From an uncultured Gammaproteobacteria bacterium (GTDB lineage: Bacteria; Pseudomonadota; Gammaproteobacteria; CAMYKB01): a stretch of DNA of 64,000 nt. A program made the translations under genes and the position numbers. Every line of letters starts with the position of its first letter. Within the stretch, counting starts at the first letter, position 1. The stretch spans positions 52,081 through 116,080 of the forward strand of contig CAMYKB010000001.1 in the NCBI GenBank assembly GCA_947258875.1, read 5' to 3'. Shown piece after piece: positions 3,816-54,480 of the stretch. The notes under the pieces were generated by a model. The model saw only the letters and a list, made by a program, of their open reading frames with translations. It was not told where the DNA came from and ran no database searches.

Positions 3816-4582
3816 CTGCTTGTTTGAATAAAGCCTTGCCGCTTAAACCAAAACAGTATGGCACCGAGTGGAATAGATGCGGATATTATCCATGGAGCAA
3901 ATGGCCCCGCCGCTATCGCAGAGGAAGCAAACAGCCTTATACTGAATGGCTGCACCCCGAATTGACCCGTTGTCCAGTTTACACTTATGGAACCGAACCC
4001 GACCAACATAAAGAGAACCCAAAGCCATTTTTTCTTTGGAATAGGAGTGCGAATGCAGAAATAAACAGTTAGCAAAATGAAAAGCGGCACAGCTATCGCC
4101 ATCAGTAACACGCTATATTGAATAGCGGACTTCCCAATAAGGCTGAATTTATTTATCTCCTTTTGAGATGCCCCTGTTCTATAAACGTTGAACCCCACAA
4201 CTGACAGGGCTTCGCCAGACTTATGTAGCACGACATTTGCCAGCGCCCACCCACCAGAAAATTGATACTCGAATGAGAAATTTCCTTGCCATTGCGAATT
4301 AGACACGCTTATTCGAGTACCGATCAGCTCAGTGCTTAGCAGATCGCCACCCGGAAAGTACTCGGCAATCTCTAGAAGCTTTTCGTCGGTAACCTGGTTT
4401 TCGATGCTTTGATCTATGTATTGCTTAACGTAGTCGAAGTCTCTGCCATGAAGCTCTTGCAGATAATCTCGCGCGAATTGTGATTCTTCTTTAAGAGTTA
4501 ACTCATCAGTCATTTCCCCGTTGCCACACGAAGCCGCAAGCAGCAGTGTTGGGATAATGAGTATTCTTGTTAATATTTTCAT
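3788..4582 (-). CDS. Lipoprotein with C-terminal transmembrane segments (hypothetical, cassette-borne)
   Basis: Start reassigned to MKILTRILIIPTLLLAASC (lipobox), just after the GTTGGGT core. Three hydrophobic C-terminal segments. Confidence 0.75.
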   Translation of the reverse strand: MKILTRILIIPTLLLAASCGNGEMTDELTLKEESQFARDYLQELHGRDFDYVKQYIDQSIENQVTDEKLLEIAEYFPGGDLLSTELIGTRISVSNSQWQGNFSFEYQFSGGWALANVVLHKSGEALSVVGFNVYRTGASQKEINKFSLIGKSAIQYSVLLMAIAVPLFILLTVYFCIRTPIPKKKWLWVLFMLVGFGSISVNWTTGQFGVQPFSIRLFASSAIAAGPFAPWIISASIPLGAILFWFKRQGFIQTSRTNNESISD

Positions 4583-20797: not shown

Positions 20798-21874
20798 TTA
20801 TATCAATTTTAACTGAACATGCGAATCTTCTTTGTCCGGGACACATAAACCAGACACCGTGACACCCAGTAGGCGCACCTTGCGCTGGCCGGCATCGGTT
20901 TTCGCCAGCAACTCCGGCAGCAGCGCATTCATCTCACTCAAGGCAGTAAAGGACTGCTCCAGAGTTCTGCTGCGTGTCACCTGCTCGAAGTTATCGAACT
21001 TCACCTTAATGGTCAGCGTGCGCCCGCTAATCCCCCTGGCAACCAGTTCATGCGCAACCTCGCTGCTGCGTTGCCGCAACTGTAACAACATATCCCCGCT
21101 ATCCGAGAGATCCTGATCAAAGGTGGTCTCCGAACCAATGGATTGCCGCACACGCTGACTCTCTACCGGCCGGTCATCGATCCCCCGTGCTGCGTGATAG
21201 TAATAATGCGCAGCCTTGCCAAAGACATCCTGCAAATCCTCCAGTGACCAGGTCTTCAAATCTCTGCCGGTAATAATGTCCAGGTCGTGCATTTTTGCTT
21301 CGGTAACCTTGCCAATACCGTGAAATTTACCGATCGCTAACGCATCCGCAAATGCGGCACCCTCGTCCGGCGTGATGACATACAAGCCATCCGGCTTGTC
21401 CATATCGGATGCGATCTTGGCAAGAAATTTATTGTAGGAGACACCCGCCGAAGCGGTCAGGCGGGTGTCACGAAAGATATCAGCCTTGATCGCTTGCGCG
21501 ATGCGGGTTGCCGAACCCTGAAAATCAGTATTCTTAGTGACATCCAGATACGCCTCATCCAGCGATAAAGGCTCAATCAAATCGGTATAGCGCTGGAAAA
21601 CCGCGCGAATCTGCGCTGACAGCTGCCGGTAAACCTCAAAACGTGGACGCACGAAAATCGCCTGCGGACACAACCGCCGCGCACGCGAAGACGGCATCGC
21701 CGAGTGAATGCCAAACTTACGTGCTTCATAAGAACAGGTCGCGACCACCCCGCGTTTGTCGGGCGAACCACCTACAATAATCGGCCGCCCCCGATACTCG
21801 GGGAAATCACGCTGCTCGACAGCAGCGTAAAAGGCATCCATGTCGATATGGATGATTTTGCGGTGGGTGTGCAT
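20798..21874 (-). CDS. dinB: DNA polymerase IV
   Basis: IHIDMDAFYAAVE, SYEARKFG, SLDEAYLD and KFLAKIASD motifs. Confidence 0.97.
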   Translation of the reverse strand: MHTHRKIIHIDMDAFYAAVEQRDFPEYRGRPIIVGGSPDKRGVVATCSYEARKFGIHSAMPSSRARRLCPQAIFVRPRFEVYRQLSAQIRAVFQRYTDLIEPLSLDEAYLDVTKNTDFQGSATRIAQAIKADIFRDTRLTASAGVSYNKFLAKIASDMDKPDGLYVITPDEGAAFADALAIGKFHGIGKVTEAKMHDLDIITGRDLKTWSLEDLQDVFGKAAHYYYHAARGIDDRPVESQRVRQSIGSETTFDQDLSDSGDMLLQLRQRSSEVAHELVARGISGRTLTIKVKFDNFEQVTRSRTLEQSFTALSEMNALLPELLAKTDAGQRKVRLLGVTVSGLCVPDKEDSHVQLKLI

Positions 21875-21954
21875 GGGGGGATTATAAAGGCTGCATAAGT
21901 ATCTCGGGAAATGCGATACCGAAGTCGAAAAGTCTGGGAATGAGGAACTAGCGT

Positions 21955-22220
21955 GTATCGCTAACGCGATGATTGTTTGATGTGGGTATTCGCACCCCCG
22001 GGCGAGGCACTTTCTTTGTCAACAGCAACAAAGAAAGTGCCCAAAGAAAATGCCGCCCCAAGTCGCTCAAGGCCACTGCGCTTCGCAGTTTTGGCTCCGA
22101 GGTCGCCCGACAGCACATCCTTGTGCTGGCGTGCGACGCGCGCGTTCCCTCGCGCGCCACTTCGTGCTCCCAGCCAAAACTTTGCGATGCTCGGGCACGC
22201 GCCGAAGGGGAATCAAATCA
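21955..22220 (+). repeat. Structured MITE-like repeat, copy 1
   Basis: TCGCTAACGCGA...ATGTGGGTATTCGCACCC...GCACTTTCTTTGT/ACAAAGAAAGTGC hairpin...GATGCTCGGGCACGC..GAAGGGG. Homologous to 22895-23157 in inverted orientation. Confidence 0.88.
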
Positions 22221-22309
22221 CTTCGCGTTTCAAGCTTTGTTTAAAAATTGAGTGTGGCCGATTAATTCGAGTCTTCCCCCGATTATCTATGCCTTACATG
22301 CATTGATTA

Positions 22310-22687
22310 TCAAATATGGCCACTAATGCCAGACAGAGTTGATAACAGTAGTAAAGCCAAGAGTGGTGAGGATAAAGCAAACAACCATTCTGCAAAGAAA
22401 ATAATTATGCCACTTGAATAATTTTGTGCGCCAATTTCCGAAAGGTAAGATCCATAGAAACCAGCGGCTAGCGCTCCACCTAGAATGCCGATGGCGAATA
22501 ACACAATAAAAACCAGCATGACTGTAACAGCTACCGACTCCAAGCTCGTAAATTTAAGCGCAAAGTGTCTATAGAAAACGAGAACGACACAAATTAGCAA
22601 AGTTAGGAGTACAGATTTTCGAAATACACGATAGCCGGGTTGTGCGCTATCGCTTAGCATTTTCCGGATAATGTCGATTAGCTCCAT
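22310..22687 (-). CDS. AT-rich hypothetical membrane protein
   Basis: 125-aa ORF with three hydrophobic segments, visibly lower GC than flanks. Confidence 0.65.
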   Translation of the reverse strand: MELIDIIRKMLSDSAQPGYRVFRKSVLLTLLICVVLVFYRHFALKFTSLESVAVTVMLVFIVLFAIGILGGALAAGFYGSYLSEIGAQNYSSGIIIFFAEWLFALSSPLLALLLLSTLSGISGHI

Positions 22688-22842
22688 TCAACCTTCCAAA
22701 AGTTCGCCCATCTTCGTGGTGCCTAATTTAGTTAATTATGCGGAACATATTTACCATGTATTTATTGCATATATGGACTATATTTCCACGTAATCTCATA
22801 TTCAAGGTAAAACATGGAAAATCCCGAAATGTTATATCGCTT

Positions 22843-22872
22843 CCCGGGTTACGCTGCGCTCACCCAGGCTAC
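22843..22872 (-). repeat. GTAG-type REP element
   Basis: GTAG-CCTGGGT-GAGCGCAGCGTA-ACCCGGG palindrome. Confidence 0.75.
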
Positions 22873-22894
22873 AAAAGCAGGTTTTGTTTTGACT

Positions 22895-23157
22895 TTGATC
22901 TTCATCCCCTTCAGGCGTGCCCGAGCATCGTAAAGCTTTGGCTGGGAACCCGAAGGGGCATGGCATGGATGCCATGCATTGGCCCTCGGCACATGGACGT
23001 GCCGTGGGCCAACTTCGGAGCCAAAGCTGCGAAGCGCAGGAATAGCACGCCTGAGGGGTGTCCTTTCTTTTGGGTACTTTTCTTTGGACAAGCAAAGAAA
23101 AGTACCTCGCCCGTGGGTGCGAATACCCACATAAAACAACCGTCGCGTTAGCGACAC
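22895..23157 (-). repeat. Structured MITE-like repeat, copy 2 (inverted)
   Basis: Reverse complement shares the same conserved blocks as 21955-22220. Confidence 0.88.
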
Positions 23158-23163
23158 CAACCC

Positions 23164-23871
23164 CTAGTTCACCGGCAGCTTCGCCCGCAACTCATCCCGA
23201 TCAAACCACCAGTTGTCACCGACGATAACGTCTAGCATTGTGGACAGACGTGGCAATAATTCCTTGGGATCATTCAGCTGCAACATCTCCATCCAGATAT
23301 TGATGGACTCTTCATCTTCGATACCTCGGTGCCGTTTGGCTACCTGCGCCAGAATCTGTGAAGTCAGGAAGGAGAGGCTCTCTTCATCCTTGCCTTCGCA
23401 ACGCAGATGCACGATGTAATGTGCAACAGCGGCGGCCACAGCGCCACCATCAGAATCATCCGGCGTCTCATCCACAACATGATGCAACATGGCAACCGTC
23501 GTCTGTGGTGAGATCGGATAGGTTATCCCCAGCCACACACCTTGCGCCAAAGCAATAATGGATTGCTCCTGCTCGGCGCGATACATGATCTCACAGGCCT
23601 CGACGGCGGCCTGCCATTCCTCTACTGTCAGCAACAAATCAAACGCAGCGCGCGCCTCGTCCCAGGCCTCTTTTGATTGCTCCAGGCCCAACAGGGTTTC
23701 AGCAATATCGACCATGATGCGGCCACGATCGCCAGCCGCTGCATCATCTGCCAATTCGCGCAAATGCTGGCGGTGCTGAAATAACTGTTTTTCCAGTAAT
23801 GCTCGGGACTCGCCGGTATTCATACCAACAACGGAATCCTTAAGGGGCTTGTCACCAGTGAGCTCAGTCAT
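23164..23871 (-). CDS. Hypothetical helical (TPR-like) protein
   Basis: 235-aa ORF with a GGAGG RBS. No catalytic motif recognised. Confidence 0.8.
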   Translation of the reverse strand: MTELTGDKPLKDSVVGMNTGESRALLEKQLFQHRQHLRELADDAAAGDRGRIMVDIAETLLGLEQSKEAWDEARAAFDLLLTVEEWQAAVEACEIMYRAEQEQSIIALAQGVWLGITYPISPQTTVAMLHHVVDETPDDSDGGAVAAAVAHYIVHLRCEGKDEESLSFLTSQILAQVAKRHRGIEDEESINIWMEMLQLNDPKELLPRLSTMLDVIVGDNWWFDRDELRAKLPVN

Positions 23872-32727: not shown

Positions 32728-35076
32728 TTATGCAGTATTTGCATTGAGTATTTCCGGCCTTCCAATAGCATAACCCTGCGCATAATCCACACCAATATCA
32801 TTAATCAAGGCATGGATATCCTGCGACTCAACGAATTCAGCGATTGTGCGCAAACCCAGCACATGCCCGATATGGTTAATAGATTCCACCATGGCACGGT
32901 CAATCGCATCGCTTGTGATGTCCTTTACAAATTGACCATCAATTTTCAGATAATCGACTGGAAGATTCTTGAGATAGGCCAGTGATGACATACCCTTGCC
33001 AAAATCATCTAACGCAAACCGGCAACCCATGCCTTTCATATCAATAATGAACTCTTTGGCTCGGCGAAGATTTGCAATTGCTGTAGTCTCGGTGATCTCA
33101 AAACATATTTTCGACGGCAGCGCTGCGATCTGGGTTAGTTGGTGTTTGACAAAAGCAGAAAAACGTTCGTCGTTGAGCGAGTGCCCCGACAGATTGATGC
33201 AACAGGTATGCGTATTCTCCAAATCACCAGGATTAGCAGCAAACCAGGCGACCAGCGTTTGAATTACCCAACGATCTATATCGGTCATCAGGTTAAAACG
33301 TTCCGCAGCAGTCAGAAATTTTTCGGCAGCGATCAGCTCGCCATCAGCATCACGCATGCGAATCAATATTTCGAAATGCCCATGACCATTCAGACTATCC
33401 TGCAATGCCAGGATTGGCTGGCGCACCAGCACGAAACTGTCATGATCCAGGGCGTCCTTGAGTCGACCGATCCACTGTATTTCATCATGCCGCAGTGAAA
33501 GTCCCGTGTCATTGGTGTCATACACGTGCACACGATTCCTGCCCGCCTCCTTGGCAGCGTAACAGGCTGCATCTGCCGCACTGAGTATATGTGTTCTCGA
33601 AGAGTCCGACGAAGCCAACGACACCAGTCCTATACTAACGGAAACAGAAAAGCTGCGGTCATCCCAGGGAAACCGAAATTCCGCGATACGCTCACGTATG
33701 TTTTCTGCAATGATAACGGCATTGTCTATTGAGCAATTATCAAGAATGACTGCAAACTCATCACCGCCCAACCTGGCAATGATGTCACTTTCGCGCGCAT
33801 TATCTTTTAGTAGATAAGCAATCTGACACAACAACTCATCACCCGCACGATGGCCACAAGTGTCATTCACAACCTTAAACTGATCCAGATCCAAAAAACA
33901 CAACACATACTCTTCAGCAGGATATGTTTGACAGTTCTCTAATGCCTGCAACAGGCGCTGCTCAAACTCATGGCGATTGGTCAATCCGGTTAATGCATCA
34001 TGCGTAGCTTGATACGAAATCTGGCGCGTCAACTCCTGCTCGACTGTGACATCATGGAAGACAATAATCGCTCCTGATATCCTGCCATCCATATCACATA
34101 TCGAAGAACAAGAGTGCTCAATAGTCACCTTCCTGCCACTCTTACCTACCAGGATGTGCACTCCTTTATTCCCTGATCTACCCTGCTCGAGACAAACAGC
34201 AAGAGGATCTTCTATCTCAGCCTGAGAATCTGCATCAAGCATTTTCAGCACATCCCTTATCGACGCACCTGCAAGACCTTCAGAACCCCAGCCAGTTATT
34301 TTCATGGCAGTTGGATTCATATACTCAATTCCACCCCTAGCGTTGGTAGTGATTACACCATCGACTATAGACCTCAAGGTGATCTGGGCACGATCCTTTT
34401 GTTCATTCAGCTCCTGCTCGGTTCTTTTACGCTCTTCGATCTCCGCACTTAATTGCGCACGCACCTCCATCGCGGTCCATTCATGGGTGCCGGTCATGCC
34501 CGCAAGAAATGCCAACGCCGCCACTACTGTAGCGGCATGCATGTATGGTATGTCTCCCGCCCCCGCAAACGGATCAGGAAATGCGTACCCCACGCTACTC
34601 AGGTAGACAAATAGCAATACTGCTATTACTGCAAGCAGAGTCATTAGATAACCGTACCAGCGGCCTACGATTAACGTTGCGAGTAGCGGCGCGCAGGCAA
34701 ACCAGATCAGTGCAAATTCCCGTCCACCTGTACAAAAATAATTCCCATATACAACAGCAACAAAGCCCGGAATGATAATCAGCACACCTGATAAGGTGTA
34801 ATCGCCTGTGAGCCTATACAGAAAAAGCATCAGGGGCAGTATGCCGGTCAATACCCCTAGAACGACCAGCTCCAGACTCAGCCCGCCACTCTCGATAAAC
34901 ATTACCGCACACACGATCATGCCGAATACAAAGGCCAGCATCGAGGACGCCACGGTGACGCGGATACGCTGCAGTGTATTGGGGTCATCCCGCAGATTAT
35001 CTGGTGCGAACCAGTCAGCGAAACGGTACAACGGCATAAGCATCCGCTCTCGTACTCCTATATACGCTACCATCAT
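32728..35076 (-). CDS. Membrane-anchored PAS-GGDEF-EAL protein
   Basis: About 6 TM segments, PAS, RLGGDEF, FEILIR and LDDFGKG. Confidence 0.93.
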   Translation of the reverse strand: MMVAYIGVRERMLMPLYRFADWFAPDNLRDDPNTLQRIRVTVASSMLAFVFGMIVCAVMFIESGGLSLELVVLGVLTGILPLMLFLYRLTGDYTLSGVLIIIPGFVAVVYGNYFCTGGREFALIWFACAPLLATLIVGRWYGYLMTLLAVIAVLLFVYLSSVGYAFPDPFAGAGDIPYMHAATVVAALAFLAGMTGTHEWTAMEVRAQLSAEIEERKRTEQELNEQKDRAQITLRSIVDGVITTNARGGIEYMNPTAMKITGWGSEGLAGASIRDVLKMLDADSQAEIEDPLAVCLEQGRSGNKGVHILVGKSGRKVTIEHSCSSICDMDGRISGAIIVFHDVTVEQELTRQISYQATHDALTGLTNRHEFEQRLLQALENCQTYPAEEYVLCFLDLDQFKVVNDTCGHRAGDELLCQIAYLLKDNARESDIIARLGGDEFAVILDNCSIDNAVIIAENIRERIAEFRFPWDDRSFSVSVSIGLVSLASSDSSRTHILSAADAACYAAKEAGRNRVHVYDTNDTGLSLRHDEIQWIGRLKDALDHDSFVLVRQPILALQDSLNGHGHFEILIRMRDADGELIAAEKFLTAAERFNLMTDIDRWVIQTLVAWFAANPGDLENTHTCCINLSGHSLNDERFSAFVKHQLTQIAALPSKICFEITETTAIANLRRAKEFIIDMKGMGCRFALDDFGKGMSSLAYLKNLPVDYLKIDGQFVKDITSDAIDRAMVESINHIGHVLGLRTIAEFVESQDIHALINDIGVDYAQGYAIGRPEILNANTA

Positions 35077-35689: not shown

Positions 35690-37819
35690 TCAATACGTGA
35701 GGATCGATTTGGGTTTACTTATGCCGAAACCTTGCGCATAGTCGACACCGAGTTCCCGCAAGCGGGACTGAATATCATCGTTCTCGACGAATTCGGCTAT
35801 AGTCTTCTTGCCCATGACATGGCCGATATCGTTGATCGACTTGACCATGGCGAGATTGATCGGATCGAGATGCATGTCCCTGACAAATTGCCCATCGATC
35901 TTAAGCAAATCGACTGGCAAGTTCTTGAGATACGCGAATGATGACAGCCCACTACCAAAATCGTCCAGCGCAAAAACGCAACCGAGGCGCTTTAATTCGT
36001 TAATAAAGTTAATGGCATTACGCAAATTCGCGATCGCCGCAGTCTCTGTAATCTCAAAGCAGATCTTCTCGGGTGGGATAGATTTATCGCCGAATTGCGT
36101 CATCACAAATTCGGCAAAGCCTTCATCGGCGAGAGACAATCCGGACAGATTTATGGCGCACATCGACAACCGTTGCAATCGGTCAGGATCACTCTTGAGC
36201 CATTCGAATGCGCGCTGGATCACCCAGCGATCGATCTTGGGTGTTAGATTAAATTGTTCCGCCGTCTTAAGAAAGGTAGCAGGTGCCACGCGTTCACCGC
36301 TCTCATCGAGCAAGCGCACCAGCAATTCAAAATGATCCCCATCATCATCAGTATCCAAAATCGGCACTATCGGTTGATAATCGAGTTCAAAACGGCTCTC
36401 TTCCAGCGCACGATCAATACGCACCACCCACTGCATCTCGTCGTGACGACGCAACATCACTGTATCTTCTTCATGATACTCATGCACGCGGTTACGCCCA
36501 GCGTCCTTGGCGGCATAACAAGCTGCATCTGCTGCACTCATAACGCTGGTCATACTTTCACTGCTATGGTCGATCGGCACCAGACCGATACTGACGCGCA
36601 CCTGGAAGCTCTTACCTTCCCATTCGAAACGATACTCCTCAATTGCTGCACGCAGCTTGTCGGTCACGCGTCTGGCCTGTTTGAGTGTACAGTCTTCCAT
36701 CAACAGACCGAATTCATCGCCACCCAGGCGGGCCAGGGTATCGTTGCGCCTTACCTGCACACGCAATAAATCTGCTACCTGTTTCAGTAACTCATCGCCC
36801 GCGATATGCCCGCAGGTGTCATTAATTACCTTGAACTGATCCAGATCCATATAGCACAAGGCATGTTCGTTCCGGTCCTCCTGGATGTTTTCCAGTATCT
36901 TTTCAAGCCGCCGCTCAAATTCACGGCGGTTCACCAGGTCGGTTAATGGATCATGGCTCGCCTGATGGGTCAGTTGCTCTGTAAGACTATGTGCTTCTGT
37001 CACATCCCAGACCACCCCCGTGATTTGCGCTGCCTTTCCGTCCTTCTCACGATACATCTCTCCGCGCAGCGCGATCACCCGTATATCATTATCGGCTTTT
37101 GCTACACGAAACTGGGTATCGTATTCAGCGCCCTGTTCAAGCGTGCCGTCAAGCTCTGCCCGCACCCGTTCACGATCATCCGCGTGCAGCCGTAAAAAAA
37201 TATCCTCAGGGGTACCGGCGAAGCTGGCCTTCTCCAGCCCGAATAGCGGTGCGGCAAACTCATCCAGAATCACCCTGTCGGTTAACAGATTCCAACTCCA
37301 GGTACCCACTTTCGACGCCTTCAACGCCAGATTCATGCGCTTGGTAAGTTTATACAGCGCAAGCTGGGTGCGCCGGCGTTCCGTGATATCAACGAAACTC
37401 ACAACACAACCAATCACCTCACCTGCTTCACGGAGTGGTCGGCACCAATACTCTACCGGGAAATTTTTACCATTTGCCCGCCAAAACACCTCATCGGACG
37501 CACTGCTTGCACTCGCCGCATTTAGCGATTTCAGTATCCTGGATTCAGTCCTGGGAAAGGGCTTGGCACCCATCAGCGAGTGCTGGATGGTGTCGTGCAT
37601 GTCCTTGCCGATCAACTGCTCGGGCATTTGATAACCCAGCCCTTGTGCAGCAACAGGATTACACAGTGAGATACGCCCTTCCAGATCGAGACAGAAAACG
37701 CCTTGCGCCGACGATGAGAGCACCAGCCGATAGCATTTATCAGTATTCCAGAAAACTACGCCGGCTTGATATTCGCCAGTAGACATAGCCGACTCAGTTC
37801 CCTTGATTGGTTCTTTCAC
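35690..37819 (-). CDS. Cytoplasmic PAS-PAS-GGDEF-EAL protein
   Basis: Two PAS/PAC domains, RLGGDEF, FELLVR and LDDFGSG. Confidence 0.93.
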   Translation of the reverse strand: MKEPIKGTESAMSTGEYQAGVVFWNTDKCYRLVLSSSAQGVFCLDLEGRISLCNPVAAQGLGYQMPEQLIGKDMHDTIQHSLMGAKPFPRTESRILKSLNAASASSASDEVFWRANGKNFPVEYWCRPLREAGEVIGCVVSFVDITERRRTQLALYKLTKRMNLALKASKVGTWSWNLLTDRVILDEFAAPLFGLEKASFAGTPEDIFLRLHADDRERVRAELDGTLEQGAEYDTQFRVAKADNDIRVIALRGEMYREKDGKAAQITGVVWDVTEAHSLTEQLTHQASHDPLTDLVNRREFERRLEKILENIQEDRNEHALCYMDLDQFKVINDTCGHIAGDELLKQVADLLRVQVRRNDTLARLGGDEFGLLMEDCTLKQARRVTDKLRAAIEEYRFEWEGKSFQVRVSIGLVPIDHSSESMTSVMSAADAACYAAKDAGRNRVHEYHEEDTVMLRRHDEMQWVVRIDRALEESRFELDYQPIVPILDTDDDGDHFELLVRLLDESGERVAPATFLKTAEQFNLTPKIDRWVIQRAFEWLKSDPDRLQRLSMCAINLSGLSLADEGFAEFVMTQFGDKSIPPEKICFEITETAAIANLRNAINFINELKRLGCVFALDDFGSGLSSFAYLKNLPVDLLKIDGQFVRDMHLDPINLAMVKSINDIGHVMGKKTIAEFVENDDIQSRLRELGVDYAQGFGISKPKSILTY

Positions 37820-53049: not shown

Positions 53050-54480
53050 GTGATGAGCGATTTATTTCTCAACCTGCTGATTGCCCAGGCGTTGATGGGC
53101 GCATTCGATACGATTTATCACCACGAACTGAAAGTCGCACTCCCACGTTGCATCAACGCAAGCCAGGAACTTGCTATCCACGCCGTGCGCGCCCTGCTCT
53201 ATGCGGTGCTGTTCGCTGGCCTGGCCTGGTTTGAGTGGGGCGGGTTATGGGTCGTCGCGTTGGCGAGTATCGTTGTTGTGGAAGTCGTCTTAACGCTTTG
53301 GGATTTTGTGCTTGAAGACACAACGCGACTGCTACCCAAAACAGAACGCATCACGCACACAATACTTGCAATAAACGGCGGCGCTGTATTCCTGTTACTC
53401 GCCTTGATGTTGCCAGGATGGTTCGAGCGACCCACAGCATTTTATGCAATGGATTACGGCTGGCGCTCGTGGTTTCTCAGTGTTGCTGCGGTGGGCGTTG
53501 CATTGTCAGGTATAAGAGATGCGCTGGCTGCCTGGAGTGTACAACGCCTGAATCTGGATCTTGATCTGGACCTTGGGCAACCGCATTGCCGCTTGTTGAT
53601 ATCCGGCGGCACCGGCTTCATCGGCAGCGCACTCTGTCACGAGCTACTGCGCAAAGGTCATAACGTAACATTAATTACCCGGCGACCTGTTGCCGCCGCG
53701 ATTCAATTTGATGGGAAACTGCGCGCCCTGAGGAGCGTCACAGAGCTATCGGCTTACGAACACTTCGACGCCGTCATTAACCTCGCCGGCGCCCCTGTGG
53801 TGGGTCCACTGTGGACGAAGGCACGTAAAAAAATACTGCTCTCCAGCCGCCTGGATACCACTCAGGATCTACTGGATTTCGTGAAACAGGCACATACCCG
53901 CCCCGGTGTGTGGATCCAGGCGTCGGCGATTGGTTATTACGGCACACAGGCGCATACCGCTCTCCACGAGCAATCGCCGGGTGGCGACGGCTTCGCTGCA
54001 GATTTATGTAAACGCTGGGAAGGCCTGACCGATGAACTGGATGCATATTCTGTTCGCTGTGTGACATTACGTATGGGCATGGTATTCGGTCGCAGCGGTG
54101 GCTCACTGCCGCCGATGTTGTTGTCCTACCGCTTTGGCGCCGGGGCCGTGCTGGGAAATGGTAAACAGCATCTTGGATGGATACATATCGAAGACCTGCT
54201 GCGCCTGATTGCACAGTCTGTCACCGACCAATCACTGCATGGCGTACTCAATGCGGTAGCACCAGATAGCCCCACACATGCTGAATTCGCGCATCTGGCC
54301 GGACGGCTGTTGCAACGCCCCGTCTTACTACGCATACCGGCAAGCCTGCTGCGCAGACTGCTCGGTGAAATGGCTTCGTTGTTCGTCGACGGGCCACACA
54401 TCGTCCCGCGACGTTTGCAACACATGCAGTTTGAATATCGCTTTCCTGACTTACGTGTCGCGCTAATGGATTTGACATAA
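53050..54480 (+). CDS. TIGR01777/YfcH-like epimerase fused to an N-terminal membrane domain
   Basis: N-terminal GAFDTIYHHE TM domain; GGTGFIG, NLAG, SAIGYYG and WIHIED. Confidence 0.88.
   Translation: MMSDLFLNLLIAQALMGAFDTIYHHELKVALPRCINASQELAIHAVRALLYAVLFAGLAWFEWGGLWVVALASIVVVEVVLTLWDFVLEDTTRLLPKTERITHTILAINGGAVFLLLALMLPGWFERPTAFYAMDYGWRSWFLSVAAVGVALSGIRDALAAWSVQRLNLDLDLDLGQPHCRLLISGGTGFIGSALCHELLRKGHNVTLITRRPVAAAIQFDGKLRALRSVTELSAYEHFDAVINLAGAPVVGPLWTKARKKILLSSRLDTTQDLLDFVKQAHTRPGVWIQASAIGYYGTQAHTALHEQSPGGDGFAADLCKRWEGLTDELDAYSVRCVTLRMGMVFGRSGGSLPPMLLSYRFGAGAVLGNGKQHLGWIHIEDLLRLIAQSVTDQSLHGVLNAVAPDSPTHAEFAHLAGRLLQRPVLLRIPASLLRRLLGEMASLFVDGPHIVPRRLQHMQFEYRFPDLRVALMDLT

Follow-up and report, generated by a model that had tools for sequence, protein, structure and literature searches.

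The window, a stretch of 64,000 nucleotides of DNA from an uncultured gammaproteobacterium, contains a divergent doublet made of two diverged copies of a structured repeat of about 255 nt. The copies are placed 5'-to-5', copy 1 at 21955-22210 with its GGA strand on the minus strand and copy 2 at 22906-23157 with its GGA strand on the plus strand. Both were delimited by alignment, copy 1 with copy 2 and 10 further copies of the genome, and they scored 267.6 and 263.0 bits, respectively, with nhmmer. In the repeat finder the cores came out as a pair of inverted arms, each 125 nt long, with 76% complementarity and a separation of 714 nt, together with a second arm pair (59 nt, 90% complementary). 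The AT-rich spacer between the copies holds a 125-aa hydrophobic ORF (22310-22687, minus strand), which matched no Pfam family and is part of the locus, not of the repeat. A REP-like palindrome (22840-22872, plus strand) lies upstream of copy 2 and likewise of other copies; its stretch recurs at C9:15895-15968 and C14:2254-2297. Immediately 5' of copy 2 is a run of short T-rich 5-6-mers (GGTTTT GTTTT GACTTT GATCTT; 22880-22905, plus strand), as found 5' of several copies in this genome; comparable 5' arrays are described in the available text of a preprint (Li et al. 2026, bioRxiv 10.64898/2026.09.22.753630). On the outer sides of the doublet, a convergent 235-aa gene (23164-23871) has its stop codon 6 nt from the 3' end of copy 2, and the GGA strand of copy 1 is directed toward an ORF (20798-21874, minus strand) identified as dinB by a match to the IMS family (E 1e-51). 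About 80 nt separate the 3' end of copy 1 from the start codon of dinB downstream. The promoter scan detected nothing sigma-70-like at the 5' end of either copy, and the sole promoter-like site in 21800-23300 was at 22805-22777 on the minus strand.

Each copy contains two neighbouring hairpins with A-N-GGA-N loops and covarying stems. The core of copy 1 (22085-22185, minus strand; 111.2 bits with model R1) consists of a basal stem and two hairpins, GCGCGCG/AGGGAA/CGCGCGC at 22138-22157 (loop 22145-22150) and an inner stem CAGCAC/AAGGAT/GTGCTG at 22111-22128 (loop 22117-22122) enclosed by an outer stem at 22102-22137. The corresponding hairpins of copy 2, on the plus strand, are GCATGGC/ATGGAT/GCCATGC at 22958-22977 (loop 22965-22970) and TTGGCCC..GGCAC/ATGGAC/GTGCC..GGGCCAA at 22979-23012 (loop 22993-22998), within a core at 22930-23030 that scored 111.1 bits with R1. 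The basal stems read TTTTGGCT/AGCCAAAA in copy 1 and CTTTGGCT/AGCCAAAG in copy 2. All the stems and loops quoted in the earlier note, from which this analysis started, were thus found in the sequence at their positions. The core is followed by a 3' tail. This begins with a pyrimidine tract and a hairpin with a purine arm, a candidate triple-helix module listed in the module table as ..TTTTCTTTGGG with GACAAAGAAAGTG in copy 1 (22008-22053, minus strand) and as CCTTTCTTTTGG with AAAGAAAAGTAC in copy 2 (23062-23106, plus strand). Next comes a small hairpin, helix 10 of the consensus, which in copy 2 reads GTGGGT-GCGAAT-ACCCAC (23113-23130, plus strand); a pattern search of genome contigs with the second tail hairpin gave no match. 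The terminal hairpin (helix 11) is ATCGCGTTAGCGAT on the minus strand in copy 1 (21957-21970) and GTCGC-GTTA-GCGAC on the plus strand in copy 2 (23142-23155), where a minus-strand reading continues with GGTTGTTTTAT. In both copies this hairpin is terminator-like on the strand opposite to the GGA loops (21956-21971, plus strand, for copy 1; 23156-23141, minus strand, for copy 2).

The two 101-nt cores fold with z = -3.8 (copy 1) and -6.9 (copy 2) relative to 200 shuffles. In the minimum-free-energy folds of both, the two hairpins stand on a common basal stem, and helices 3, 6 and 7 of the RNAalifold consensus show the same arrangement. A long outer stem appears in the folds of copy 2 and five other copies; in the class to which copy 1 belongs, only a short CCCC/GGGG closing is evident. 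Helices 9, 10 and 11 of the consensus are three 3' hairpins. In the alignment of 12 copies from this genome, standard pairs occupy 94.0% of the pair cells, against 38-47% when partners are slid, and 33 of 69 pairs show compensatory changes; none of 500 shuffles reached the observed values. Both sides have changed in 5 of the 7 pairs of hairpin 1 and in 10 of the 13 pairs of hairpin 2. A cross-genome alignment of the core (49 distinct matches, 21 genomes) gave 92.3% paired cells against 38-44% when slid, with compensatory changes at 36/36 pairs, figures that lean toward structure because this alignment was fitted to the model. The A-N-GGA-N loop is present in 23 of 24 loops of the 12 copies, and across genomes GGA is kept in loop 1 of 44/49 matches and in loop 2 of 43/49. 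The distance between the two GGA triplets has a median of 28 nt and varies only from 26 to 29 nt (n = 40 elements). The covariation, strong both within the genome and across 21 genomes, supports the proposal of the earlier note that the element is under selection for structure, and its description of the loops as A-N-GGA sites of the type bound by CsrA agrees with both their sequence and their spacing. Folding energy did not discriminate between the strands, the non-GGA strand folding as well as the GGA strand (z = -7.8 and -6.4). G-U pairs outnumber A-C cells on the GGA strand by 62 to 21 over the 69 pairs of the 12 copies (34 to 21 without three mostly-G-U pairs), and the cross-genome core alignment shows a weak asymmetry in the same direction (59 to 41).

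Copy 2 matches the Rfam family TwoAYGGAY (RF01731) at 22918-23042 on the plus strand, over model positions 1-168, with 44.5 bits for a gathering score of 43 (E 2e-5). Copy 1 gave no RF01731 match at E <= 1; the homology of copy 1 to copy 2 is established by their alignment and by model R1. The loops of copy 2 both fit AYGGAY, and those of copy 1 keep A-N-GGA with a purine at the first Y. TwoAYGGAY was described by Weinberg et al. 2010 (PMC2864571) and, like the present repeat, has two neighbouring hairpins that share a basal stem and carry loops of the A-Y-GGA-Y type; it is likewise multi-copy, found in Gammaproteobacteria and an orphan as to function. The Rfam model found two sub-threshold matches genome-wide, whereas a 101-position core covariance model built from the copies of this genome found 12 strong ones; the genome-wide run of the Rfam model missed even the over-threshold copy 2 of the window, and the counts were therefore not based on it. 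A close description is that of Li et al. 2026, whose available text reports an extended Pseudomonadota form in which the basal stem is elongated and three additional hairpins and a tertiary (pseudoknot-like) element lie on the 3' side; short repeats of 5-6 nt accompany it 5' of the element, and REPs lie nearby. Compared by features, the copies of this genome show the elongated stem, in copy 2 and five others, as well as helices 9-11 and a mirror-repeat tract that fits the tertiary element. Variants with a third GGA hairpin, also reported there, occur in this genome at C9:15506-15839 and C6:24868-25198, and divergent doublets are described as enriched, with widely variable copy number. The doublet of the window differs in its spacer, which is 714 nt long and contains an ORF; the median given in the preprint is 249 bp. 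We conclude that the two copies in the window form a divergent doublet of TwoAYGGAY elements of the extended Pseudomonadota type, a repeat already catalogued and multi-copy. Its fold is known from RF01731; CsrA binding to the loops was predicted by Gardner and Eldai 2015 (PMC4333381), and both mobile-like spread and the idea of a Csr/Rsm sponge are found in the discussion of the 2026 preprint.

About 22 loci of the family, with 75-97% identity, are dispersed over the 3.0 Mb of this genome, 12 of them with the GGA core; the copies without GGA loops include four of type B and three lacking the core. The copies sit behind unrelated genes. At 18 of the 22 loci the 3' end faces the stop codon of a convergent gene, within 11 nt in eight cases, and only four copies, copy 1 among them, point the same way as the gene that follows. 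The main text of Li et al. 2026, as far as available, was found to mention neither terminators nor stop codons, and "convergent" there refers only to the mutual orientation of doublet elements and not to flanking genes. Further divergent pairs are present on contigs C7, C9 and C14, and all seven in-locus pairs found in other genomes were divergent. The 30 nearest genomes available are related at class level only and come from 30 separate families, and the dinB neighbourhood recurs in none of them; a blastn search of 20,395 E. coli records with copy 2 gave no match.

The conserved 3' tail has a mirror-repeat pattern compatible with a triple helix. Read by eye, the tract contains the purine arm translated T for A and C for G in 26/26 rows with a recognisable tail module, including those with the rare purine arms AAGAGAAAG and AAGGAAAG. 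Of 45 matches entered in this comparison, nine had no purine-arm hairpin found; 35 rows were listed and nine set aside, a different hairpin having been picked or the module mis-registered. A longest-run mirror score discriminated poorly (observed mean 6.8, cross-pair mean 5.8) because all tracts are T-rich. Judged from this pattern, the pyrimidine tract and the purine-arm hairpin may form a triple helix. The tail-module pattern turned up at 122 loci in other species, and the tail is better conserved than the tip, a core being detectable in only about 25 of 80 tail loci.

We then considered the relation of the repeat to CsrA. This genome has one csrA gene. In a sample of 150 genomes of the class, csrA was present in 18 of the 20 core-bearing genomes, and the two without it have a completeness of 82% and 73%. 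Of 60 named genomes with the tail module, 21 yielded no csrA, and whole-genome search revealed no GGA core in 19 of these; the control genomes contained 27, 57 and 62 cores. The two exceptions, G187 (42 cores) and G202 (one core), are metagenome bins, so that csrA may merely be unassembled. GGA-tipped copies were thus found almost only where csrA was found in the sampled genomes. By name, 17 of the 19 genomes lacking both belong to Burkholderiales, Silvimonas or Desulfobacterota, and 15 to the first two; the co-occurrence is confounded by descent. Several of the repeat loops with their closing pairs read C-A-N-GGA-N-G, the RsmE/CsrA consensus. Like the sponge RNAs of the Csr/Rsm system (CsrB and CsrC; RsmX, RsmY and RsmZ), the repeat presents GGA in hairpin loops at a spacing that would let one dimer bridge two sites; it differs from them in having only two or three sites per unit instead of many, and in being dispersed in about 22 copies instead of being encoded by a gene or two. 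The Rfam search of 21500-23500 reported no Csr/Rsm family at E <= 1, and none passed its cut-off in the rest of the genome; the best genome-wide scores, none of them at the repeats, were 26.4 for RsmZ (cut-off 44), 23.7 for RsmY (cut-off 57) and 18.1 for CsrB (cut-off 71). The best RsmZ-like match (C8:59329-59446) proved to be a terminator region with one A-N-GGA. At least one non-coding stretch that is CsrB-like, rich in GGA and equipped with a strong terminator already exists in the genome, and the repeats are therefore not needed as the sponge. By eye, the motifs of this stretch are mostly AAGGA and CAGGA, against mostly AGGGA and ATGGA in the repeat loops.

The most likely reading of these observations is a transcribed, CsrA-binding, mobile-like RNA module, with transcription and CsrA binding predicted from sequence; we consider it evenly balanced between right and wrong. 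The unit, read on the GGA strand from its own 5' side, would form a long rod whose tip presents the two A-N-GGA-N loops about 28 nt apart, and these loops would jointly hold one CsrA dimer. The tail after the rod, with its possible triple helix and two small hairpins, would stabilise the RNA. The many dispersed copies might supply the cell with additional CsrA decoys or localise CsrA. On the other strand, the last hairpin would end transcription coming from the convergent neighbour gene; with a stem of 5-6 pairs it would be a weak terminator. The family would multiply by a process resembling that of mobile elements and survive mostly behind gene ends. The earlier note had stressed that the GGA strand of copy 1 is the sense strand leading into dinB. 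The strand assignment holds, and one could imagine copy 1 as a cis-acting, CsrA-responsive leader regulating dinB; the emphasis is weakened by the 4/22 count of co-oriented copies, the distance from the GGA loops to the start codon of dinB exceeds 230 nt, the loops being upstream of it and not on it, and copies elsewhere follow unrelated genes, which makes such a leader highly improbable.

A structured RNA of the same family might also use its GGA loops for a partner other than CsrA, or for none, with the unit's main role being that of a stable RNA, an insulator or a cassette for termination behind genes. The prevailing orientation toward gene stop ends, the terminator-like terminal hairpin, a tail that outlasts the tip, and the GGA-less backbone copies, which are conserved and widespread (in this genome and in Comamonadaceae, Silvimonas, Pasteurellaceae and Desulfobacterota), would all suit this explanation. 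It accounts poorly for the persistence of GGA, in about 88-90% of loops, on stems that turn over, which points to a specific reader of GGA, and for the restriction of GGA tips to genomes where csrA was found, the two bins apart; we regard it as possible, with the weight against it. With similarly limited confidence, the family may be seen as a mobile RNA scaffold, a long rod with a triple-helix tail, that carries an exchangeable tip. The GGA tip would then be a cargo kept only in lineages with CsrA, and CsrA-less lineages, Comamonadaceae and Silvimonas among them, would bear a different tip (GTTTGAG..CGAGTT) on the same scaffold, to be read by a different partner. The repeat may instead be selfish at the DNA level, a MITE, REP or REPIN kind of element whose single-stranded hairpins are kept for a mobilising or recombining enzyme, the GGA loops being passengers or enzyme contacts. 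Its copies are indeed many, dispersed, diverged, partly deleted and modular, the divergent doublets resemble long inverted ends, and both strands fold equally well. REP-like palindromes adjoin several copies, and related REPs, together with a fragment of the tail, lie on the flanks of a gene for a RAYT-like Y1 transposase (C2:38045-38374). REP/REPIN-RAYT systems and the intergenic repeats of Pseudomonas fluorescens (Silby et al. 2009, PMC2718517) are likewise hairpin-forming and lie mostly between gene tail ends; a tail-repeat-tail placement is known for ordinary intergenic repeats, for which terminator-like roles and "least harmful site" explanations are proposed in the available text of that study. 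Its family R200 of P. fluorescens SBW25 (320 bp, 47 copies) may, at a guess, be identical with the element behind the preprint's 48 TwoAYGGAY matches. However, the present unit, with about 255 nt and many helices, is far larger than a REP and has a more elaborate fold; the REP-like palindromes beside the copies and beside the RAYT-like gene are separate from it. Its two ends are unlike each other (5' CCCC..CCGAGCATCG, 3' ..GTCGCGTTAGCGACAC), and the mirror-repeat tail and the G-U excess fit one folded strand. Inspection of the flanks by eye showed no evident target duplication. We also rejected the doublet as a composite transposon: no transposase lies inside any doublet, and the ORFs between the wider pairs are ordinary genes, for example a glutamyl-tRNA-synthetase-like gene. 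Recognition of the loops by a mobilising enzyme, the second suggestion of the earlier note, lost ground, since GGA-less family members are also multi-copy and widespread; the GGA loops are dispensable for spread and are thus not the enzyme's site. A selfish repeat at the DNA level seems unlikely.

The doublet of the window represents nothing new in kind. For the family, it adds modest leads: an orientation rule with respect to neighbouring genes, the mirror-repeat tail, and the co-occurrence with csrA. TwoAYGGAY is among the most abundant orphan structured elements of Proteobacteria, with 27 to 62 copies in three named genomes. If it binds CsrA, a large and variable share of the CsrA-binding capacity of these bacteria would reside on a repeat whose copy number differs from strain to strain. 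Should the GGA tip be the cargo of a mobile scaffold, the copy number of CsrA decoys could evolve by transposition rather than by promoter tuning.

The two copies of the ~255-nt repeat in the window lie at 21955-22210 (copy 1, minus strand) and 22906-23157 (copy 2, plus strand), with their 5' ends toward each other and an AT-rich spacer of 714 nt between them. The repeat finder returned two pairs of inverted arms, one of 125 nt with 76% complementarity and one of 59 nt with 90%, and mean column identity between the copies was 84% in the pairwise alignment. All stems and loops quoted for both copies in the earlier note were found at their positions. Its statement that the GGA strand of copy 1 (the strand showing GGA in the hairpin loops) leads into dinB gave the reading direction correctly, the ORF concerned (20798-21874, minus strand) being of DinB type, with an IMS family match at E 1e-51. 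The spacer contains a strongly hydrophobic 125-aa ORF (22310-22687, minus strand) with no Pfam match, downstream of a promoter-like site (22805-22777); no sigma-70-like promoter was found at the 5' end of either copy. Elsewhere in the window, 33004-33908 and 35960-36864 share three families of direct repeats of 63-98 nt (73-79% identity) at a common spacing of 2956 nt, which suggests two diverged tandem paralogous genes.

When 21500-23500 was scanned against Rfam, as had been proposed, copy 2 matched TwoAYGGAY (RF01731) with 44.5 bits (gathering score 43, E 2e-5), and no match was obtained for copy 1 at E <= 1. Over the whole source genome the RF01731 model gave two matches only, both sub-threshold. 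The Rfam model lacks sensitivity for this lineage, and we therefore built a covariance model from the genome's own copies. This model, R1, spans the 101 positions of the core (basal stem and two GGA-loop hairpins) and was trained on 12 copies. In the source genome 12 of its matches were strong and 3 weak; of 150 other genomes sampled from the same class (one genome per family), 20 also had matches. The window pair is a doublet-form member, that is, a pair of copies, of the known TwoAYGGAY family. The motif is listed by Weinberg et al. 2010 (PMC2864571). Gardner and Eldai 2015 (PMC4333381) matched a CsrA-site model to both of its loops and proposed it as a CsrA-sequestering RNA. In the Pseudomonadota form described by Li et al. 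2026 (bioRxiv 10.64898/2026.09.22.753630), the basal stem is elongated, three more hairpins and a 3' pseudoknot are present, and the element is accompanied by short repeats on its 5' side and by REP arrays nearby; variants carry extra GGA hairpins, and copy numbers reach 202. Divergent pairs make up 68.4% of its doublets (median gap 249 bp), and multivalent Csr/Rsm sponges and mobile-element-like expansion are discussed. Since they were proposed in the latter two papers, the CsrA reading and the mobile-module reading are both already published hypotheses. A full-text search by motif name found no binding or expression experiment on TwoAYGGAY.

The earlier note was right about the hairpin pair: the fold is under selection and loops of the AnGGA type are kept across copies. 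The 101-nt cores of the two window copies had fold z-scores of -6.9 (copy 2) and -3.8 (copy 1). Pairing was assessed on these copies aligned with ten others from the source genome, using the RNAalifold structure plus one added hairpin. Standard pairs filled 94.0% of pair cells, against 38-47% with slid partners, and compensatory changes occurred at 33 of 69 pairs; the observed values were reached by none of 500 shuffles. In the two GGA hairpins, 5/7 and 10/13 pairs had changed on both sides, and 23 of the 24 loops read A-N-GGA-N. The CsrA/RsmE consensus is C-A-N-GGA-N-G. Covariation and loop conservation were present again among 49 distinct R1 matches, with 92.3% of cells paired (38-44% when slid) and all 36 pairs compensatory in an alignment that, being fitted to the model, is biased toward structure; GGA was retained in loop 1 of 44 and in loop 2 of 43. 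The two GGA triplets were 26-29 nt apart (median 28, 40 elements), a spacing that a single CsrA dimer could span.

In the source genome (3.02 Mb, 67 contigs, 51% G+C), blastn and nhmmer returned 31-36 matching pieces, which were merged by hand into 22 loci. The family is modular there. The two-hairpin core is present at 12 of the 22 loci, two of which carry a third GGA hairpin (C9:15506-15839 and C6:24868-25198), and is absent from three copies; four type B copies combine the family 5' motif CCGAGCATCG and 3' tail with a different tip without GGA loops, and some loci are tail fragments alone. The 3' boundary is sharp, directly after GTCGCGTTAGCGACAC; the 5' side merges into 5-6-mers rich in T and, for several copies, continues to a common leader and a REP-like palindrome. 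Six tandem GGGGTT units lie immediately 5' of a family member in Silvimonas amylolytica (L090), and arrays of GGTTTT, GCTTTT or GCGGTT occur at or near members in other genomes; such arrays of short repeats, variable in sequence, seem to be a trait of the family. A separate repeat family comprises tandem copies of a ~21-nt unit, GGGAATGACGAACTAGTAAG, broken by masked N (C4:~4066-4310), and a related palindrome, TTCCCGCCTGCGCGGGAATGACG, that recurs 3' of several repeat copies.

In the tail, 3' of the rod (the long stem bearing the tip), a pyrimidine tract precedes a hairpin with a purine-rich 3' arm (23062-23106, plus strand, in copy 2; 22008-22053, minus strand, in copy 1). Of 45 matches entered in a table of this module, 9 had no purine-arm hairpin; among its 35 distinct rows, 9 were set aside because the script had registered the module wrongly or settled on a different hairpin. 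In each of the other 26 rows the tract, by eye, holds the purine-arm core in the same 5'-3' orientation, with T replacing A and C replacing G. AAAGAAAA occurs with TTTCTTTT in 8 rows; in 18, an arm in which three A follow the G corresponds to a tract CTTT followed by non-T; and the rare purine arms AAGAGAAAG and AAGGAAAG corresponded to tracts TTCTCTTTG and TTCCTTTC, respectively. The tract is a mirror image of the next hairpin's pyrimidine arm, and across genomes (including loci L043-L071) it covaries with the purine arm of that hairpin. A crude run-length mirror score separated poorly (6.8 versus 5.8 for cross-pairings). Judged from sequence, the pattern fits that expected of a pyrimidine-motif triple helix (U.A-U / C+.G-C). 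One exact variant of the tail module occurs at at least 122 loci (~700 estimated), in carriers that include, by record titles, Methylomonas, Methylobacter, Dyella, Cellvibrio, Ectothiorhodospiraceae, Pasteurellaceae, Comamonadaceae, Silvimonas and Desulfobacterota. Among the first 80 of these loci, about 25 have an R1-type core directly 5' of the tail; in the remainder the rod ends in a different tip, often GTTTGAG..CGAGTT, which is also the type B tip of the source genome.

Gene placement was scored with crude calls (the longest ORFs without mutual overlap, 100 aa or more). The 3' end of the repeat faces the stop end of a convergent gene in 18 of 22 units in the source genome, at 11 nt or less from the stop codon in 8 of the 18. 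The equally crude test on 34 units in other genomes gave 19 convergent, 9 co-oriented and 6 without ORF. On the convergent gene's strand a T-rich run follows the terminal hairpin, and the consensus scan placed terminator-like hairpins on the neighbour gene's strand in both window copies (23141-23156 and 21956-21971). Divergent doublets on contigs C7, C9 and C14 lie between convergent gene pairs, and in other genomes each of the 7 pairs found within one locus is divergent. Terminator-like ends aimed by each unit at a gene tail would alone yield divergent doublets between convergent genes. A Tail-repeat-Tail bias has been described among intergenic repeats generally (Silby et al. 2009, PMC2718517); the main text of Li et al. 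2026 mentions neither terminators nor stop codons, which its supplements may cover.

Co-orientation with the next gene was seen in 4 of the 22 units, including copy 1 and dinB, and we regard a leader specific to dinB as very improbable. A selfish repeat acting purely at the DNA level is an unlikely explanation, though clearly less remote than such a leader. G-U cells outnumbered A-C cells over the whole element (62 vs 21; 34 vs 21 without three mostly-G-U pairs), the excess being weak in the cross-genome core alignment (59 vs 41), and fold strength was equal for both strands of the core. The source genome has two Y1-transposase (RAYT-like) genes. One, at C2:38045-38374 (region C2:37800-38560, L200), has REP palindromes GTAGGATGGGTG... 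on both sides and a fragment of the repeat 3' tail after it; REPs related to these also precede several repeat copies, for example at window 22840-22872. No transposase was found inside any doublet.

For the CsrA reading, the source genome carries one csrA gene, and csrA was found in 18 of the 20 core-bearing genomes (the other two being 82% and 73% complete), against a background of 122/150, the only tallies that include two genomes flagged unpublished (G039 and G141), on which no conclusion depends. Of 60 named genomes with the tail module, 21 yielded no csrA (Comamonadaceae 5/5, GGA-tip carriers 0/5, others 16/50). R1, trained on source-genome copies and scoring 150 first-look candidates per genome, found no core genome-wide in 19 of these 21 (by titles, 12 Comamonadaceae, 3 Silvimonas, 2 Desulfobacterota and 2 unclassified gammaproteobacterial bins) and 27, 57 and 62 cores in positive-control genomes, a contrast drawn from few independent lineages. 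Cores occurred despite no csrA being found in two metagenome bins, of Methylococcaceae (42) and Cellvibrio (1), and Aggregatibacter, Mannheimia, Psychrobium and Cellvibrio carriers have the backbone and csrA without R1 cores. A structured RNA of the same family with another reader or role is a possible, if rather doubtful, alternative. No Csr/Rsm family of Rfam scored above cut-off anywhere in the source genome. Two GGA-dense non-coding stretches there have stops in all six frames and AAGGA/CAGGA motifs. That at C36:~21440-21790 (plus strand), ending in a strong terminator (hairpin and T-run) whose loop reads CAGGATG, is likely a CsrB/RsmZ-type sponge RNA, and that at C19:~53060-53350 (minus strand) may be a second. 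With such candidates elsewhere in the genome, the repeats would not be required as a sponge. That the repeat is a CsrA-binding RNA module, as proposed, has in our judgement an even chance of being correct.
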